IMG/VR virus record: IMGVR_UViG_3300028832_000119
Span: 72,924 to 89,426 of that record
Length of the DNA: 16,503 bases
DNA from: a virus
Taxonomy: Duplodnaviria > Heunggongvirae > Uroviricota > Caudoviricetes
Reading direction: 5' to 3' (one strand)
Below the pieces are notes generated by a model. The model ran no database searches. It worked only from the letters and a program-made list of their open reading frames with translations, and was not told the origin of the DNA. The position numbers and the translations under genes are program-made. Positions 3,638 to 14,727 of the stretch are shown here, piece after piece. The first letter of the stretch is position 1, and each line of letters starts with the position of its first letter.

Positions 3638-3687
3638 AGTAGATAGTAATTATTGAAGTAGATAGTTGTAATCATAGATGTATGATT
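3638..3687 (+). promoter_or_regulatory. AGTAGATAGT x2 (3638-3647, 3657-3668 as AGTAGATAGTTG) followed by hairpin AATCATA-GATG-TATGATT
   Basis: Same 12-mer plus hairpin layout recurs at 9086-9114 at nearly the same distance from a start codon. Confidence 0.6.
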
Positions 3688-3716
3688 CAAATTATGAAAA
3701 TGTTTTAATAATTATT

Positions 3717-4424
3717 ATGAACAATTTTAACTTTGGCGGTCTTGCCGAAACCTCATTTACTAACAATGGTCCTCAGTACCTTCGTCCTTATGATATTTAT
3801 GAAGTTAATTTGACTAAGATTGAGAAGAGTTCTCTTAAAGGTAAGGATGGCACAGAATATGGTGTTATTGCTTTAGAGTTTAAGGGTTGTGGTGATAACA
3901 ATGGTGTATATACTCACAACTTGTTTATTCCTCACAAGGATTCAGACTTCGAGAGAAGAATTAATGAGACTAGTGGTACTCCTTATCCTTCTGCATTTGA
4001 GCAATTCCAGTATACCTTAATGCAGTTAATGCAGGTTATTAATCCAAAGGGTGCTGATAAGATTAAGGAGAATGCTTCTAAGTTGAAGAGTATGGATCAG
4101 TTTATTGATCTTATTATCAAAGGTCTTACTGGTAAGACTGATGTTAAGTTCTTCTTGAAGCTGGTTGGTCGTAACCAAGGTGGAACTACATATGCTACTA
4201 TTCCTAATGCTTGTGTATTGGGTAAGAAAGCAACTGCAGAGACTAAGCCTTCTGCTTTGAACTTTGTAGCTCTTGATAAGAGTCTGTTGGCATTCTCTAA
4301 TTATGAGTTGACTCAAATGAAGAATTATAAGAATGCAACTCCTACTAATATGGATAAGGAAGCTGATGAAACTCCTGATACCGCTGGAGACGATGTAGAT
4401 TTAGACGATATTAGTTTGGATTAA
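3717..4424 (+). CDS. Putative single-stranded DNA-binding protein
   Basis: Lies between Sak4-like ATPase and primase; acidic tail DETPDTAGDDVDLDDISLD; AAG/GAG-rich codon bias. Start placed at ATG 3717 (MNNFNFGG, context TTATTATG) rather than 3678, which would overlap the upstream hairpin. Confidence 0.55.
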   Translation: MNNFNFGGLAETSFTNNGPQYLRPYDIYEVNLTKIEKSSLKGKDGTEYGVIALEFKGCGDNNGVYTHNLFIPHKDSDFERRINETSGTPYPSAFEQFQYTLMQLMQVINPKGADKIKENASKLKSMDQFIDLIIKGLTGKTDVKFFLKLVGRNQGGTTYATIPNACVLGKKATAETKPSALNFVALDKSLLAFSNYELTQMKNYKNATPTNMDKEADETPDTAGDDVDLDDISLD

Positions 4425-4447
4425 ACATAATTGAAGATTCTTGATTT

Positions 4448-5449
4448 ATGTATTTTTCATCATTACAACCAGAAATTACTAAGGAATTTATATTTTCTAA
4501 AGGAATAAATCAGGAATCTATAATGCAACATTACACTGGACTAGATGTTAGAAGTAAAAAGCTAGCATTTAGCCCCTTTCGTAATGATAACCATGTTACG
4601 TGTGCTTTCTATAAATCCAAATCTAACATATTATATTTACATGATTTTGCTACTAATGAACATATCAATTGTTTTCAAGTAGTAATGAAGAAATTTAATG
4701 TAAATTATTATGAGGCATTAGAAATAATTGCCAAAGATTTTGGATTAATAGAAGGAACACACAGTAATAAAGTTGCCCCTATTATTGTCAAACCTATTAA
4801 AGAAACTGAATCTTCTAATATTCAAGTTCAAATTAAGGATTATACTGAGGAAGAATTAAAGTGGTGGGAAACTTTTGGAATATCTAAAAAACTTCTTAAA
4901 AAGTATCATATATATTCACTTCAACACGTATTTATTAATGGTCAGTTAAGATTTACTTCTTCTAGTAAATGTCCAATTTATGGGTATTATTTTGGTAAAG
5001 ATAAGAATGGAAATGAGAAATGGAAATGTTATTTTCCTTTAAAAACGGAATATAGATTTCTCAATAATCTTTCTAAAAAAGTTCTTCAAGGTTATCATCA
5101 ATTACCAAAGACTGGAGATTTATTAGTAATTACTAAATCAATGAAAGATGTAGTAGCTTTGTACGGTTTTGGAATAGCTGCTGTTAGTCCTAATTCAGAA
5201 ACTCTATTTGTTGATGATAAAAAATTAGAAGAGTTTAAACAACGTTTTAAACATATTCTAGTAGTTTATGATAATGATAGACCTGGATTATATAACATGG
5301 CTAAAATAAGACGAGACCATCCAGAATTAAACTATTTCTATATGCCTTGGTATCTTGCAAAGGATTTTACTGATTCTATTAAATTAGTTGGAGTAGAAAA
5401 TATGAAAGAATATGTTGATGAATTTTTTAAAGAATATAAATTTAAATGA
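4448..5449 (+). CDS. TOPRIM-family (DnaG-like) phage DNA primase with atypical motifs
   Basis: N-terminal SPFRNDNHVTCAF (degenerate Zn-binding domain), VITKSMKD in place of EGxxD, VYDND DxD motif, KDFTD; 333 aa. Confidence 0.8.
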   Translation: MYFSSLQPEITKEFIFSKGINQESIMQHYTGLDVRSKKLAFSPFRNDNHVTCAFYKSKSNILYLHDFATNEHINCFQVVMKKFNVNYYEALEIIAKDFGLIEGTHSNKVAPIIVKPIKETESSNIQVQIKDYTEEELKWWETFGISKKLLKKYHIYSLQHVFINGQLRFTSSSKCPIYGYYFGKDKNGNEKWKCYFPLKTEYRFLNNLSKKVLQGYHQLPKTGDLLVITKSMKDVVALYGFGIAAVSPNSETLFVDDKKLEEFKQRFKHILVVYDNDRPGLYNMAKIRRDHPELNYFYMPWYLAKDFTDSIKLVGVENMKEYVDEFFKEYKFK

Positions 5450-5676
5450 AAAAAGTATATTTGGCTAAAGATTGGACTGGAGTTCATATATTTCTAGAAC
5501 CTCCTCAATTAATGAAATGTGGAGGGTTACCTGAAATTTGGTGTGGTCATAGACTAAAAGAAGTTTTAAATGAAACTCTTCAAATAGCAAAAGAGGATAT
5601 TCCTAAAGGACGATATTTAGAACTTGACTTATATTGGTCATTAGTTCATTCTTATTCTAACACTAAAGAAATATGA
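5446..5676 (+). CDS. Hypothetical protein (76 aa)
   Basis: ATGA overlaps at both ends. Confidence 0.7.
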   Translation: MKKVYLAKDWTGVHIFLEPPQLMKCGGLPEIWCGHRLKEVLNETLQIAKEDIPKGRYLELDLYWSLVHSYSNTKEI

Positions 5677-5882
5677 AAGCTTCAGAAAAGCAAATAGAAT
5701 TTTGCAAAACTCTAAAAGGTATTCTCCAATTTTGGATAGATTCTAATGATATTAATTCTCCTTCTCATTTTACTATTATAGAAGAAGTAATTAATAACGA
5801 ATTAGAACCTTTGCCTGAAAGGGATAAGGAATTGTTAATAGATGTCTTTGGAAATTTACTTACATATGTAAGAAAATTATGA
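5673..5882 (+). CDS. Hypothetical protein (69 aa)
   Basis: ATGA overlaps at both ends. Confidence 0.7.
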   Translation: MKASEKQIEFCKTLKGILQFWIDSNDINSPSHFTIIEEVINNELEPLPERDKELLIDVFGNLLTYVRKL

Positions 5883-6178
5883 AAATTAATGAAAATAATA
5901 TTGAAAATATTCCTCTAAAAGAAAGAGCCTTAGTTAGGGCTTTATTAGAGGATATGGAAGAAATAAATCATAACCTTCCTTTACATTCTCCTAATTTAGA
6001 ATTAGAGTGGATTGATACACATACTGAATATTCTCCAGAAAGAACAGACCCATGTCCTGATTATTATGGAATGTATAGAATTTGGAGAGGTAATGATTAT
6101 ATAGGGGTTGAAATGGATTTAGACACTTTAGATTCTGCTTTATGTTTACTTTATAACTTTGTTATAGAAGATGACTAA
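5879..6178 (+). CDS. Hypothetical protein (99 aa)
   Basis: ATGA overlap upstream; overlaps next start. Confidence 0.7.
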   Translation: MKINENNIENIPLKERALVRALLEDMEEINHNLPLHSPNLELEWIDTHTEYSPERTDPCPDYYGMYRIWRGNDYIGVEMDLDTLDSALCLLYNFVIEDD

Positions 6179-6326
6179 AGAAGAATATTTAAATTCTTTA
6201 AGTAAAGAAGATATATTAAATGGGATAGGTTGGTATTTATTAGACCATGATGATGTTCCAGAAGATGTATCTCCTGAAGATATTTGGTCTGTTATTGCAG
6301 ATTTAATCATTTTAGAATGTATTTAA
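6171..6326 (+). CDS. Hypothetical acidic protein (51 aa, MTKEEYLNSLSKEDILNGIGWYLLDHDDVPEDVSPEDIWSVIADLIILECI), not in ORF track
   Basis: Fills the gap exactly: 8-nt overlap upstream, TAA abuts next ATG at 6327. Confidence 0.7.
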   Translation: MTKEEYLNSLSKEDILNGIGWYLLDHDDVPEDVSPEDIWSVIADLIILECI

Positions 6327-6875
6327 ATGAAGTAGAAACAATTAAATACCGGAGTCAAAATAACTGATAAAGGTGGAAATACTTATGTATATGATTCCAT
6401 AGAAAAAGCAGCTGAATTGACTCAAATGAGTATACAAACTTTAAAAATAAGAGCTAATAAAAATAGTGTTCCAAAGGATGGTATTAAAGTTGAATGGCTT
6501 GATCCTAGTACTAAGAAACACTATACTGCTAAGAGATCTAAGCAAAAGGGTTCACAACTTGAGCTAGATGTTATTCATAAACTAAATGAAATTGGTTACA
6601 CTACAGTTAGTAGTAGATCTAATAGTAAAAATTTAGATAATGCTAAAGTAGATATAGATGACTTAGGTGGAAACCTTCCAGTCTATATTTAGTGTAAAGC
6701 TACTCAAACTACTCCTTCTTACTTTAAAATTGAAGAAGAATGTCCATTAAAGGACAAACCGTTTACAGTAGTTTGGAAAAAGCAGGATAAAGAAGGAGGT
6801 AACAGTCCTGGAACTGTTTTTATTGCTCCTTTAAGTTTGTTATACGACTATTTAAAATTGAAATTAAATGAATAA
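6327..6875 (+). CDS. Hjc-type Holliday-junction resolvase (PD-(D/E)XK) with N-terminal NUMOD1-like HTH; 182 aa only if TAG 6333-6335 and TAG 6690-6692 are read as sense (likely Gln)
   Basis: MK*KQLNTGVKITDKGGNTYVYDSIEKAAELTQMSIQTL...SKQKGSQLELDV...SRSNSKNLDNAKVDI...PVYI*CKATQTTPSYFKI...VVWKKQ...TAA. KG..E, D and (Q)xK match resolvase motifs. The full frame abuts the upstream TAA and overlaps the downstream ATG by 8 nt. Confidence 0.8.
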
Positions 6876-7098
6876 ATATATTTGGGCAGAAGCCACTCAA
6901 GACTATTGGCCAGAGATAAAAACTATTATGGCCCCATCTTATAAAGATGCAGTAGAAAAATTAATCATTAAATATGGTACAGAATTAGATGATGATAAAA
7001 TTTTGGATAGTATTGATGATTGGCAACAATTAAGTGAATATCTAAATGATAATTACACAATAGCCTTATCTAATTTAGAAGATTATGATGAAATATGA
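6868..7098 (+). CDS. Hypothetical acidic protein (76 aa)
   Basis: Overlaps both neighbours. Confidence 0.7.
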   Translation: MNKYIWAEATQDYWPEIKTIMAPSYKDAVEKLIIKYGTELDDDKILDSIDDWQQLSEYLNDNYTIALSNLEDYDEI

Positions 7099-7619
7099 AA
7101 TTAAGAGTAGGATTTGATTTAGATGATACCATTTTTGGATTTTCTGAAGGATATTTAAAACGATTTAAACATTTTCCCAAATATGATTGGGCAATAACTA
7201 GAAATGTTACTAACATTCTAATACACGAAAGAGAGTTTTGGGTAAATCTTCCAGTAATTAGAAGACCTAATTTTGAACCAAAACTTTATTGTAGTTCAAG
7301 AGTAAATAGAAAAGCTTGGACTAAAAAGGCATTGGAAATTAATGATTTACCCAATAGTCCCTTATATCAGGTTCCAGGGTATCATATTCCTAAATCTAAA
7401 TATATAAAAGGAAGAGTTGATGTATTTATTGAAGACTCTCCCCATCAATGGAAAGCCTTGAATATGGCTGGAATTCCCTGCTTATTAATTAATGGAAGAA
7501 ATAATCAAGAATATGGTCCGATATTAAAGATATATTCATTAGATTATAATGAAATAGAAGATGCTTACTACCTCGGTAAAGAGTGTGGAATCTTTGATGA
7601 TTTTAGTAAGTTCGTATGA
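7095..7619 (+). CDS. HAD-superfamily hydrolase, 5'(3')-deoxyribonucleotidase-like
   Basis: N-terminal motif I GFDLDDT and motif IV FIEDS; 174 aa. Confidence 0.75.
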   Translation: MKLRVGFDLDDTIFGFSEGYLKRFKHFPKYDWAITRNVTNILIHEREFWVNLPVIRRPNFEPKLYCSSRVNRKAWTKKALEINDLPNSPLYQVPGYHIPKSKYIKGRVDVFIEDSPHQWKALNMAGIPCLLINGRNNQEYGPILKIYSLDYNEIEDAYYLGKECGIFDDFSKFV

Positions 7620-8638
7620 CTGTTGATTATGAATTAATTAAACAAATTAAAATAACTCCACTATTAGATACTCTTAGACTAGAAAATATTAGTGATGAAG
7701 AGTATTTTTCTGAATATAAAAATGACTATATCAGTAACTCTAGATTAGGAGTTCTTGTAAAAGATGGTGTAGAAGCTTTCTTTAAAGGAATTCCTCAAGT
7801 TTATAATCCGAGTTTTGAAACAGGTTCTCTTATTCATACTATGGTATTACAACCAGAGTCTTATGAAGTAATTAAGGGAGTATTTAAACCAACAGCTAAG
7901 GCAGGTTTAATGGCTGACGCTTTATATAAATCTGATGGAACAACCCCAACAGATGATGAAATTAAAGCACAATCCTATATTATAGGATATTATAAGGATA
8001 AGCTTACTGAAAATAGACTTACTGAATTTAGACAAAAAGCAGAACCTTATTGGAGAGATAGATTTTTATATGAGACAAATAATCCTTTTAAAGAGGGTGA
8101 TAAGAAACGTATATATACTGATGAAAGGAATTTTGAGTTATTAAATAACTGTATGGATGCTTTAAATAAAAATAAAGCTATTCAAGACCTTCTTCATCCA
8201 GATGATAGTTTTGGCCCAGTAATGGTAATGAATGAACATACACTTCTTATGGACATTCAGATGGAAGTTCCAGGATATGAACCTAGAATTTATAAACTTA
8301 AAGCTAAGCTGGATAATTTTACCTTTGAGGATGATATAATTACAGTTAATGACTTAAAGACTACAAGTAAACCAGCTAGTATATTTGACCCGGAGTATTT
8401 CCACTATCAAAGAGAAATAGCTTTCTATAGTTTCTTATTAAAGTTGTTTATAAAGAAAGAACATGGAATAGAAAACCCTAAGGTTAAAGGAAACTTCTTA
8501 GTAGTTTCAACTATTCCAGAATATTCCACTTCTGTTGTAGCAATGACTCCAAAATTATTTAAGAGTGGCTGGACAGAAGCTGTTTATTTGTTACGTAATG
8601 TAGCATATTTTAATCAAGTTAAAGGCTATGACTTTTAA
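7616..8638 (+). CDS. PD-(D/E)XK exonuclease, RecE/ExoVIII (DUF3799)-like
   Basis: ISNSRL, GSLIHTMVLQPE, KAKLDNF, NDLKTT, YQREIAFY motifs; 340 aa. Confidence 0.8.
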   Translation: MTVDYELIKQIKITPLLDTLRLENISDEEYFSEYKNDYISNSRLGVLVKDGVEAFFKGIPQVYNPSFETGSLIHTMVLQPESYEVIKGVFKPTAKAGLMADALYKSDGTTPTDDEIKAQSYIIGYYKDKLTENRLTEFRQKAEPYWRDRFLYETNNPFKEGDKKRIYTDERNFELLNNCMDALNKNKAIQDLLHPDDSFGPVMVMNEHTLLMDIQMEVPGYEPRIYKLKAKLDNFTFEDDIITVNDLKTTSKPASIFDPEYFHYQREIAFYSFLLKLFIKKEHGIENPKVKGNFLVVSTIPEYSTSVVAMTPKLFKSGWTEAVYLLRNVAYFNQVKGYDF

Positions 8639-8972
8639 AGAACTTGATAAATTTTATACTGATAATTTTAGTATAGGACATTTAAATGCAAATCCAAGTA
8701 CAAGAACTCCTTTTGAAAATAGATTAGTGCTTATTTCTTTGATTTGTCATGTTACATATAGAACAAAACTTAAAAATCCTGATGTAACACACTATCATAT
8801 TATAATGAAATTATCTGAGAACTTAGGTTTACCAGAGAATTTCATTTGGGCATTAGCTATTATTTGTAAAGATTTTAGTTATCAGTGTACCGAATTTCCC
8901 ACTTTTGGGTTAAAAGGACAAGATATTGTTAAAGAAATTCGTGGAATTTTAAAAACATATCTTCCGTTTTGA
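8628..8972 (+). CDS. Hypothetical protein (114 aa)
   Basis: Overlaps exonuclease stop; TGA stop. Confidence 0.75.
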   Translation: MTFKELDKFYTDNFSIGHLNANPSTRTPFENRLVLISLICHVTYRTKLKNPDVTHYHIIMKLSENLGLPENFIWALAIICKDFSYQCTEFPTFGLKGQDIVKEIRGILKTYLPF

Positions 8973-8986
8973 TTATAAAGAGAAAG

Positions 8987-9114
8987 TGTTAAAATCTGTA
9001 TTTTAACATTTGTTAACTATGATTATCATAAATCTGTGATAATTTTAATATGTTCTTCTTCGGAAGAAAAGATGTTTCCATATTTAGTAGATAGTTGATG
9101 ACGGATTTATCCGT
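8987..9114 (+). promoter_or_regulatory. Structured intergenic leader: four hairpins (one cUUCGg) and AGTAGATAGTTG motif
   Basis: Stems 8987-9008, 9022-9043, 9053-9068 (TTCTTC-TTCG-GAAGAA), 9101-9114; motif at 9086-9097; longest gap in the window. Confidence 0.6.
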
Positions 9115-9711: not shown

Positions 9712-9749
9712 ATAGCCGATTAGACTTAGTTCTAGTCGGCTATTTTTTT
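9712..9749 (+). terminator. Rho-independent terminator
   Basis: ATAGCCGATTAGA-CTTAGT-TCTAGTCGGCTAT, 13-bp stem with one G-U pair, followed by a T-run. Confidence 0.9.
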
Positions 9750-11289: not shown

Positions 11290-11721
11290 ATGACTAAGTA
11301 TCAAGAATTTTTAAATGGAATTAATGTTATTCCAGAAGATTTATTTTATGAAGTATTAGATAGTCTTCCAGAATATGATTCTGATAAGGCAGATTTTCTT
11401 AATGTTTATGATTATAATTCTCAAGATGAAATTGCTGCAGAAATTATTGCAACAATCTTACTTAATTGGTCCTGTGTCACTTGTGAAGATGTAGATTTTG
11501 AAAGAAAAACATTTACTTTAGTTGATGGTTCTAGTTTAGAAGATTTAGAAGAAATTAAAGAAACCTTTTCTAAATGGACTATTAATAATTATGAAGAATG
11601 TAAAGAATGGTTTCTTAGTGAAGAAACAAACAAAGAAAAAGATGTATTTATTCATAATTATGATTTTAGCAATGTTCCTTTAAAAGATTTAAAGGAATTT
11701 TTGAAAAAGTATGAAAACTAG
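11290..11721 (+). CDS. Hypothetical acidic protein (143 aa; 145 aa to TGA 11727 if TAG is read through)
   Basis: Only gene in the window ending in TAG; TAG AGA TGA follows. Confidence 0.75.
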   Translation: MTKYQEFLNGINVIPEDLFYEVLDSLPEYDSDKADFLNVYDYNSQDEIAAEIIATILLNWSCVTCEDVDFERKTFTLVDGSSLEDLEEIKETFSKWTINNYEECKEWFLSEETNKEKDVFIHNYDFSNVPLKDLKEFLKKYEN

Positions 11722-12382
11722 AGATGAAGTTCTTTCACAAGCTGCAGAAGATTGTTTGAAAGACTTTTATAAATATGCTGTTCCTAAAGTTTCTTGGGAA
11801 GATTTTTTAAAAGAAAATCAAGAATATACCAAAAAATATAAAGAATGGGAAGAGCTAGAAAATAGGCCTCCAATTAAAGAATTTTGTGGTCCAAGACCAT
11901 ATGAATTTTATTATCTTCCTTCTGACATAATTAAAGACATTGCTCTTTCTTATGTTCATTCTTATAGAATGGATCATCAACAAGAACTTCTTGATACTAT
12001 AGAAATTCTTAAGAATTATTGTAAAGATCCTATTGTTGATAAATATATTGAAGGAGAAAACGGATTTCCTGGTCATAGGGGATATGAGCATCCTAATAAC
12101 TTAGAAAAAGAACTTATTGATATTTGTGATCAACATTCACATGAGCCAGTAAATATGGCTAAAGAAATTCAGAGTAAGTTCTTTGAATTTCTTGATATGG
12201 CAGGAAATTTCTATAATTGGAATAGAGATTTAAATTCTTTTAATATGACTGTTTATTTAGGACCTAGTCCTAATTCTAACAAACAAGCAGTCATAGATAA
12301 CTGGAAACAATATCGAAATAAAGATATTAAAATTAATGAAAAACAAATTAAAGAAGACTATTATGGAGAAGAATTGGATTGA
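11711..12382 (+). CDS. Hypothetical protein (223 aa)
   Basis: Long ORF overlapping both neighbours. Confidence 0.8.
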   Translation: MKTRDEVLSQAAEDCLKDFYKYAVPKVSWEDFLKENQEYTKKYKEWEELENRPPIKEFCGPRPYEFYYLPSDIIKDIALSYVHSYRMDHQQELLDTIEILKNYCKDPIVDKYIEGENGFPGHRGYEHPNNLEKELIDICDQHSHEPVNMAKEIQSKFFEFLDMAGNFYNWNRDLNSFNMTVYLGPSPNSNKQAVIDNWKQYRNKDIKINEKQIKEDYYGEELD

Positions 12383-13677: not shown

Positions 13678-13898
13678 ATAGAAAATTATATAATACAGCA
13701 ATAGTTGAAAAACTAAAAGAACTTATTAATAAGTATCCAGATTTAAGATTTGGACAAATTCTTGTTGATGCTGATATTATAAAAATAGTTCATTGTAATG
13801 ATAAACCATTTGCTAAAGATCCTTATTATGAAGAACCTGAAGTAATGTGGGAAAGAATGAAAAATAATAAGTTTGCATTTAAAGAATTATTTAATTAA
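13674..13898 (+). CDS. Hypothetical protein with YPDLRFGQ motif (74 aa)
   Basis: Motif recalled from small phage proteins; ATGA overlap. Confidence 0.7.
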   Translation: MNRKLYNTAIVEKLKELINKYPDLRFGQILVDADIIKIVHCNDKPFAKDPYYEEPEVMWERMKNNKFAFKELFN

Positions 13899-13899
13899 T

Positions 13900-14727
13900 A
13901 TGAAATTATATAAGAATCCTGTATTAGGTGCAATTGCTGGAGATATGATTGGGGTGCCTTATGAATGGTATTGTAAAAAAGGACTTCGAATTCCAGAAGA
14001 TTTTGAACTTTGGACTAAAGATTCTCATTTCTCTGATGATACTGTAATGACTATTGCTGTAGCTGAATGGTTACTTTATCCTCCATATAATACTTATAAT
14101 TTAACAAGTATTATGCAAAAATGGGGAAGAAAATATCGTAGAGCTGGATATGGTCATTTATTTGGAGAATGGATTGATTCTGATGATCCAAAACCTTATG
14201 GTAGTTTTGGTAATGGTTCAGCTATGAGAGTATCTCCAGTAGGTTGTGCTTTTAATACATATGAAACCACTAGAGCTATTGCAGAGGAATCTGCTTCTGT
14301 TAGTCATAATCATCCTGAAGGAATTAAAGGAGCACAATGTATTGCAGAAATGATTGCCAGTATTAGATTTATAGGAGAAAATTGTACAAGTTGTTTAAAT
14401 ATTGCAGAAAAATATTATGGCAAAGATTCTTTGAAAAAATCTCCAAAAGAAATAATTAAATCTGGTTATAAATTTGATTCAACTTGTCAAGGTAGTGTTC
14501 CAGAAGCTATTTGTTGCTTTGCATATAGTAATTCATATGAAGAAACTATAAGAAATGCAATTATGCTTCGTGGTGATGCTGATACTCAAGCAGCTATAGC
14601 TGGTTCAATTGCAGCAGCATATTGGGGAGTTCCTCAAGGTATTCGTGATGAATGCATAGAAAGACTTCCAGATGATATGTATGATGTTCTAGAAGATTTC
14701 TCTGAAAAGTTCGGTTTAGAGCTTTAA
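13900..14727 (+). CDS. ADP-ribosylglycohydrolase (DraG/ARH family)
   Basis: GAIAGDMIG, SDDT, SFGNGSAMR, SHNHP and GDADT metal-binding motifs; start placed at ATG 13900. Confidence 0.92.
   Translation: MKLYKNPVLGAIAGDMIGVPYEWYCKKGLRIPEDFELWTKDSHFSDDTVMTIAVAEWLLYPPYNTYNLTSIMQKWGRKYRRAGYGHLFGEWIDSDDPKPYGSFGNGSAMRVSPVGCAFNTYETTRAIAEESASVSHNHPEGIKGAQCIAEMIASIRFIGENCTSCLNIAEKYYGKDSLKKSPKEIIKSGYKFDSTCQGSVPEAICCFAYSNSYEETIRNAIMLRGDADTQAAIAGSIAAAYWGVPQGIRDECIERLPDDMYDVLEDFSEKFGLEL

Follow-up and report, generated by a model that had tools for sequence, protein, structure and literature searches.

The window analysed here is a 16,503-nucleotide stretch that forms the final 16.5 kb of an 89,426-bp IMG/VR virus record (IMGVR_UViG_3300028832_000119, positions 72,924 to 89,426; completeness estimate 49%). 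Our subject is a gene of 182 codons within it, at positions 6327-6875, that reads from an ATG at 6327 to a TAA at 6873-6875 when TAG is taken as glutamine, and whose product is predicted to be a nuclease with the fold of the archaeal resolvase Hjc. We refer to it as the resolvase gene or, because of an amber codon near its start that will be documented below, as the gated gene. The gene, its parts, and the two genes that flank it are as follows.

6327-6875, plus strand: gated Hjc-fold nuclease gene, 182 codons with TAG as Gln, identified by definition of its open reading frame (ORF), by 184 database homologues, and by synteny 3' of the primase gene
6333-6335, plus strand: leader TAG at codon 3, the conserved gate codon, with an in-frame TAG among the early codons of all 57 complete homologues
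6690-6692, plus strand: TAG at codon 122, the Gln of the catalytic Q-x-K motif, lineage-specific, in an invariant-Gln column
6327-6509, plus strand: predicted N-terminal DNA-binding domain (residues 1-61) of NUMOD or homing-endonuclease type, from a fold match and a sub-threshold Pfam match
6549-6869, plus strand: predicted C-terminal PD-(D/E)xK nuclease domain (residues 75-181) with the archaeal Hjc fold, from structure and profile matches
6171-6326, plus strand: upstream 51-codon ORF, read from sequence and with homologues in several loci, whose TAA directly abuts the resolvase ATG
6868-7098, plus strand: downstream 76-codon gene, conserved and TAG-free in relatives, whose ATG at 6868 overlaps the resolvase 3' end

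The gene is tightly packed, with no gap on either side. Under the standard code it is reduced to a 91-codon fragment flanked by 90 and 175 non-coding bases. The preliminary description of this DNA had noticed two TAG codons in the resolvase gene and none in the other genes of the window, and a complete count agrees: the 25 other genes, with 5,082 codons and 152 CAA or CAG, contain no internal TAG. In those 25 genes the TAG trinucleotide occurs 166 times in frame 2 and 128 times in frame 3. In frame it is met three times in the window, twice inside the resolvase gene and once as a genuine stop at 11719-11721. That stop ends gene 11290-11721 and is followed two codons on by TGA (window 11719-11727), a backed-up stop in an early gene. 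Backed-up stops in TAG-reading phage have been described for Zeta crAss-like phages (PMC12386605). Family searches upheld the earlier labels of helicase (DnaB_C), primase, metallophosphoesterase (one or more exonucleases of that type), and NrdD, and identified in addition an AAA ATPase and an ADP-ribosylglycohydrolase.

A pool of 57 distinct, complete, two-domain homologues, with all loci combined and 41-97% identity, was available for comparison. TAG occurs by codon 38 in all 57: at codons 3-8 in 53 and at codons 18-38 in four. Among the 27 IMG/VR loci retrieved with the protein, TAG stands 2-6 codons past the ATG in all lineages except one. An early TAG is found likewise in seven loci retrieved through the primase alone, in about 45 distant relatives at 41-50% identity, and in two unannotated GenBank records from human faeces, the sole finds by tblastn; megablast of the locus against GenBank phages gave no match. 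The leader peptides differ in both length and residues (MK, MKKT, MAKAK, MSKN, MR, MVKRT, and MGRKKFT, each followed by TAG), and TAG is in frame throughout. No ATG, GTG, or TTG lies between the leader TAG and the conserved block that begins LNT. The leader varies freely and yet the TAG is kept in frame, which argues for selection on the TAG itself. In 22 close relatives, the Gln-type codons of the leader are 21 TAG versus 4 CAA/CAG, while those of the body are 6 TAG versus about 152 CAA/CAG. In its codon usage the gene body thus resembles an early gene, with one gate codon in the leader.

Seven loci (L003, L004, L007, L008, L012, L049, and L053) share an AT-rich element of about 30 nt directly 5' of the resolvase ATG, with the rough consensus TTTATCTTAGAGAAAnTAGTAATAGTAAAT. 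It is confined to lineages with an intergenic gap 5' of the resolvase and is not present in the lineage of the window. A role as promoter or as translation signal is conceivable.

The preliminary description had looked for conservation of both TAG positions in the resolvase, and this proved correct for the leader TAG, with the range of codons 1-38 given above, and wrong for codon 122. In 22 distinct close relatives the codon-122 column holds 18 CAA, 3 CAG, and a single TAG, and is invariant for Gln; the 27 IMG/VR loci have CAA or CAG there. Because TAG stands in an invariant Gln column, it must be read as Gln, and the remaining body TAGs of relatives likewise sit in Gln columns. The codon-122 TAG, which recurs only in L118, is in these alignments a synonymous change particular to this lineage. 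L118 is a distant relative (gene at about 3980-4549) with an independent TAG at the catalytic Gln of Q-x-K.

The surrounding genes are free of TAG in relatives also, as had been anticipated: in 76 loci, about 131,000 aligned codons of neighbouring genes include no TAG. Two complete genomes, G012 and G016, with terminases 46% identical, allowed the comparison of TAG with Gln codons to be made gene by gene. Their 27 conserved plus-strand early genes have 0 TAG versus 244 and 273 CAA/CAG, respectively, while their 35 conserved minus-strand late genes have 227 and 343 TAG versus 391 and 298 CAA/CAG. The resolvase, with one TAG in each genome, is the sole TAG-bearing member of 28 conserved early genes. 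TAG accounts for 37-54% of Gln codons in late genes versus about 4% in the resolvase body. Apparent early in-frame TAG or TGA codons in several neighbours (window 8565-8627; L020; L144 181-918; L145 8363-9076) were rejected as N-terminal over-extensions into the preceding gene, and stops in homologues of window gene 3678-4424 proved to be TAA codons 5' of the true start.

Gene order is constant, with the primase followed by the resolvase, then the same small gene, a kinase/phosphatase-like gene, and an exonuclease. The resolvase is present at its position in every locus that extends far enough, including the seven primase-only retrievals and relatives with 40-48% primase identity. Neither the sporadic presence nor the variable insertion sites of a free-standing homing endonuclease were seen. 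Because of its fixed place 3' of the primase and its single copy in the genome, the resolvase must be viewed as a core gene and not a mobile one.

The record represents about half of a roughly 180-kb phage of a known kind that reads TAG as Gln and has its own tRNA(CUA); complete relatives are 174-188 kb, some of them with terminal repeats. Coding density over the record rises from 0.70 to 0.82 when TAG is Gln, and at 5-15 kb from about 0.5 to 0.96 when TAG is sense. The earlier inference of an amber-recoded phage with a suppressor is well founded, since the record encodes 34 tRNA genes, of which the CTA-anticodon tRNA at c[20844-20916] is the only one on the minus strand, and essential late genes on the minus strand are rich in TAG (portal, 16; large terminase or TerL, 13; endolysin, 3). 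In five complete relatives TerL has 3-20 TAGs. The suppressor tRNA is placed at the edge of the TAG-rich minus-strand late module and shares with the phage tRNA-Gln a U1-A72 end pair. Another tRNA in the record has a TCA anticodon. The complete relative G012 has a homologue of the tRNA(CTA) at 129,937-130,009 (minus strand), about 4.5 kb upstream of the late arm and in the same orientation. About half of the long late genes have a TAG among their first 11 codons, no clear excess over what TAG density predicts, and we make no claim of a general 5' enrichment of TAG in late genes. TerL of two complete relatives matches in two pieces (G003:C1:85999-89343 and G013:C1:92628-94961), a sign that an intron, an intein, or an inserted gene may interrupt it.

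A sister clade, assembled from a protein database and a profile scan, encodes single-domain homologues of 130-150 residues, without the N-terminal domain, in the same place 3' of the primase. These genomes are recoded with TGA as Trp, as seen in TerL genes with 7-8 in-frame TGA codons. In about 18 distinct lineages the resolvase homologue has TGA at codons 11-17 of an acidic, variable leader, and in other lineages of the clade TGA is found instead at an invariant Trp. The neighbouring genes use TGG only, 23-32 per locus. The only further TGA-bearing gene among them encodes a GIY-YIG homing endonuclease, located at L147 1310-2122 in the AAA-ATPase region of the replication module, with three in-frame TGA and no TGG. 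A search of IMG/VR for close relatives of a TGA-bearing gene in L129 found only that gene itself. From comparison of these sequences, the leader TGA appears to be a second, independent version of the leader-stop arrangement, made with the other stop codon.

An AlphaFold model computed from 38 homologues has a predicted local distance difference test (pLDDT) score of 83 and shows two domains. The nuclease domain matches 1gef_A by VIA-align with Z 6.8, root-mean-square deviation (rmsd) 3.5, 91 residues aligned, and 21% identity; the Z scores for other resolvase structures are 6.7 (1ob8_A), 6.0 (2wcw), 5.2 (1hh1), and 4.7 (7bgs, the Hjc-like protein of Thermus phage 15-6). Foldseek matches the domain to 1gef with probability 0.97-0.99 and E 6e-3. 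The family profile matches Sulfolobus Hjc 1hh1 with E 0.0076, in an alignment that places E79, D109, and K124 on the Hjc catalytic positions and aligns the motifs K-G-S-x-x-E, D, and x-K. Q122 aligns with E55, the Glu of the Sulfolobus E-x-K motif, and is invariant in 38 of 38 aligned homologues, so the protein departs from the canonical E ... D ... E-x-K signature of Hjc. The protein is therefore best described, as a model-based prediction, as an Hjc-fold variant (Q-x-K), a resolvase-type nuclease set apart from canonical Hjc members. Its place amid TAG-free replication genes is as the preliminary description had it.

The PHROGs match is to phrog_244 (E 4.7e-7), a resolvase family with a RusA-like label. 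That label finds no support in the fold or in the motifs, which align with those of Hjc; RusA gave no Pfam hit up to E 1, and no RusA structure was among the listed fold matches. Pfam searches of the protein gave sub-threshold matches only, and a single-sequence search of PDB gave nothing useful. For the N-terminal domain, the fold matches are I-HmuI residues 112-174 (Z 6.8, rmsd 3.4, 60 aligned) and I-TevI (Z 5.5), and Pfam model PF22083 scores 14.7 bits (E 0.023), under its 27-bit cut-off. One relative (L027/L127; gene 5791-6357 of L027) has in place of the NUMOD-like domain a Cys-rich, zinc-ribbon-like segment (CPVHG...CPLC), with the leader TAG kept, which indicates that the DNA-binding part has been modularly exchanged.

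The nuclease domain modeled as a homodimer scored 0.84, versus 0.00 for the best of three controls. Of 30 proteins solved as one-chain pairs 20 attain that mark, as does 1 of 23 solved as single chains, and the pass may come from the model's memory of solved Hjc dimers. Separate runs had at least 97% of contacts in common, with partner pLDDT of at least 85. The nuclease is thus predicted to form a symmetric homodimer.

Two further features of the window bear on how the gene may be transcribed.

3657-3668, plus strand: shared promoter-like element, the nearest copy upstream of the gated gene, with a second copy at 9086-9097; its action as a promoter is presumed
9712-9743, plus strand: terminator-like hairpin, the first strong one downstream

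No copy of the shared element lies between 3657-3668 and the gated gene, and no plus-strand terminator was found between 3657 and the hairpin at 9712-9743. Genes 3678-8972 plausibly form one polycistronic unit, in which the resolvase would be co-transcribed with the primase. In several relatives, insertions of 0.2-1.4 kb split the DnaB-like helicase, AAA ATPase, or exonuclease gene (L040 656-2029; L053 2751-4182; L129 1221-1434; and, between the helicase and AAA-ATPase parts, L003, L007, L009, and L025); in all likelihood they represent introns, inteins, or endonuclease cassettes, gained and lost from one relative to another. Elsewhere in the early arm, just 5' of nrdD, the ADP-ribosylglycohydrolase family gene at window 13873-14727 (PF03747, E 2e-39) may have a role in reversing host ADP-ribosylation.

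We think it fairly probable, on all of the above, that the leader TAG makes translation of an Hjc-fold resolvase in the replication operon depend on the phage tRNA(CUA). The nuclease would be dimeric and most likely the DNA-debranching enzyme of the phage, encoded inside a standard-coded replication operon, and a lone amber codon 2-7 codons past its ATG would put its translation under the control of the suppressor. Early in infection, host release factor 1 would terminate at UAG, yielding a peptide of a few residues (two in the window) and no enzyme. Once the suppressor tRNA is active, UAG would be read as Gln, and full-length enzyme would be made alongside the late proteins, early enough for DNA to be debranched before it is packaged. 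A site in the leader would have the advantages that no truncated DNA-binding fragments are made and that an extra Gln or Trp there costs nothing. The steps that we infer are the late onset of suppression, co-transcription with the primase, cutting of branched DNA, and harm from early expression. The broader proposition, that a one-codon leader stop is a dedicated, selected gate, arisen at least twice (as TAG and as TGA) in gut and rumen phages of about 150-210 kb, where it holds back a junction-cutting nuclease until the code switch, is one on which we find ourselves evenly balanced.

Several observations weigh against these proposals. Because many of the loci share ancestry, the counts given above exceed the true number of independent events. 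Ungated single-domain homologues, syntenic and free of in-frame stops, are encoded in G002 and G005, which have TGA in TerL, and in G003 and G004, which have TAG in TerL; in addition, L149 and L155 have TTA at the position of their relatives' leader TGA. The preliminary description had held that homologues in recoded relatives should keep the stop; all 57 two-domain genes do so, and the sister clade has its TGA, but these four genomes do not conform. The gate is recurrent and not obligatory, with at least four recoded relatives that do without it. Structure comparison and profile search alike gave moderate scores (Z below 8, E about 0.01), which amounts to a match at the level of fold; the motif is Q-x-K and not the canonical E-x-K of Hjc, so that activity and substrate are putative; and N-terminal domains of this kind typically belong to homing endonucleases directed by sequence. 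The time at which the suppressor tRNA would act is borrowed from a literature model (Borges et al., preprint 10.1101/2021.08.26.457843).

One alternative dispenses with the clock. A single TAG in competition with release factor 1 might serve as a dose throttle, keeping a potentially toxic nuclease scarce whenever the suppressor is present, an explanation that we consider unlikely. Resolvases work in small amounts, a single gate codon ahead of a nearly TAG-free body would provide a fixed attenuation, and the existence of ungated recoded relatives fits fine-tuning more easily than it fits an essential timer. However, structural genes with 13-24 TAGs are made in bulk, which implies that late suppression is efficient and that one TAG would attenuate little. 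Before the suppressor is present, moreover, the codon would be a complete block, so that a timing effect follows anyway.

The protein might instead be a site-directed or selfish homing-type endonuclease, gated, as has already been suggested for intron endonucleases of recoded phages, to avoid cutting before the phage genome is ready. Its N-terminal domain resembles the DNA-binding modules of I-HmuI and I-TevI, to which the sub-threshold PF22083 match (E 0.023) may be added, and the differing, zinc-ribbon-like N-terminus of L027 would suit such a protein as well. Some homing enzymes are of PD-(D/E)xK type (I-Ssp6803I, Z 4.4), a TGA-recoded relative (L147) has in this module the GIY-YIG homing endonuclease with three in-frame TGA, and a recoded intron endonuclease has been described for Agate phages (Borges et al.). 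We nevertheless judge this improbable. The gene is single-copy and holds the same position in every sufficiently long locus, a synteny on which a mobile homing endonuclease was set aside as the principal explanation; the sister clade is entirely without the DNA-binding domain; and for the catalytic domain Hjc resolvases rank first in both fold and profile comparison, with a symmetric dimer predicted. The gating logic would be the same if the protein were a homing-type nuclease rather than a resolvase.

Neutral tolerance would require late translation of the gene regardless of its TAG, as from a late transcript of its own, with TAG drifting into the least constrained part, the leader. The leader does vary and accept many residues, sporadic TAGs occur at other Gln positions, and the conserved element of about 30 nt 5' of the ATG in some lineages could be the promoter for such a transcript. 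This account is nonetheless very hard to sustain. A gene translated late should resemble the late genes, in which 37-54% of Gln codons are TAG, but the resolvase body has about 4%. An unconstrained leader should shed its TAG to AAG, CAG, and other codons, but 53 of 57 keep it in place and the other four have TAG nearby; and a TGA counterpart evolved in the sister clade. Finally, although under the standard code the gene gives only a 2-residue peptide and a 91-codon fragment, with its tail untranslated, as inactivating mutations or sequencing mistakes would, a broken gene or assembly error is effectively refuted by the conservation data, namely the same feature in dozens of independent assemblies from different samples and full-length protein conservation across both TAGs, in a phage whose essential genes demonstrably use TAG as sense.

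The dependence of the resolvase on the suppressor tRNA, if correct, has consequences for how recoding is understood. The idea of recoding as timing rests mainly on densely recoded late modules, a pattern that passive processes can also produce. One stop that persists across a clade in a leader otherwise free to evolve, with a TGA mirror in another clade, is far less easily accounted for unless selection acts on the stop codon, and points to gene-by-gene use of the code switch. Taken with the recoded homing endonucleases of the same modules, it would mean that recoded stops act as gene-specific switches for dangerous nucleases, beyond their role as bulk marks of late modules. Standard gene callers start the resolvase at an internal Met (forms of 147-170 residues) or cut it at the recoded stop (forms of 94-108 residues), and single leader stops are for that reason missed both in annotation and by code-prediction tools that count recoded genes. 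One codon is also the smallest possible experimental handle on the onset of suppression.

In gut phages, recoded stop codons have been proposed to act as a brake on the expression of late and lysis genes (Borges et al., 10.1101/2021.08.26.457843; Yutin et al. 2021, PMC7886860; Peters et al. 2022, PMC9523058). The brake has the status of a hypothesis, and replication modules are standard-coded in several clades (Borges et al., 10.1101/2021.08.26.457843). The phage described here resembles those recoded gut phages in having its own suppressor tRNA, standard-coded early and replication genes, and late genes that cannot be read until TAG is Gln, with timing as the proposed function. It differs in that whole late modules are densely recoded in the described cases, while here a single conserved 5' leader codon marks one otherwise standard-coded gene in the replication operon. 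The word resolvase was absent from the recoding papers searched. We found no paper describing a leader-stop gate on a resolvase, which, judged from sequence comparison, would be a variant of known recoding-based control of late genes.

The protein itself is like archaeal and viral Hjc (1gef, 1hh1, 2wcw, 7bgs) in the fold of residues 75-181, in its aligned motifs, and in its predicted symmetric dimer. It is unlike Hjc in having Gln for the second acidic residue in every family member and, in this clade, an extra N-terminal domain of homing type.

In T4, hairpins that hide the ribosome-binding site hold back late genes on early polycistronic transcripts, with relief by a late promoter (PMC2988022). 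The genes held back include gene 49 (endonuclease VII), soc, e, and both intron-encoded and free-standing homing endonucleases (PMC2988022). By analogy with gene 49, whose product is a debranching resolvase needed before packaging, the gated gene would be a case of a DNA-cutting protein encoded on an early message with its translation blocked until late. In place of the hairpin and late promoter, the block here would be a stop codon and the relief a change of genetic code. Endonuclease VII, not known to be a PD-(D/E)xK enzyme, is unrelated to the present protein.

The nearest precedent for a gated nuclease in an early gene is that of the TGA-recoded Agate phages, in which a recoded group I intron endonuclease inside an early gene was read as a case of delayed production (Borges et al., 10.1101/2021.08.26.457843). 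Both are nucleases encoded in an early transcription unit with in-frame recoded stops, and the GIY-YIG gene of L147 matches the Agate case. The Agate endonuclease, however, is mobile and sporadic and has several recoded codons, while the resolvase is a fixed, syntenic core gene with typically one such codon, at its start, in TAG-recoded and TGA-recoded lineages alike.

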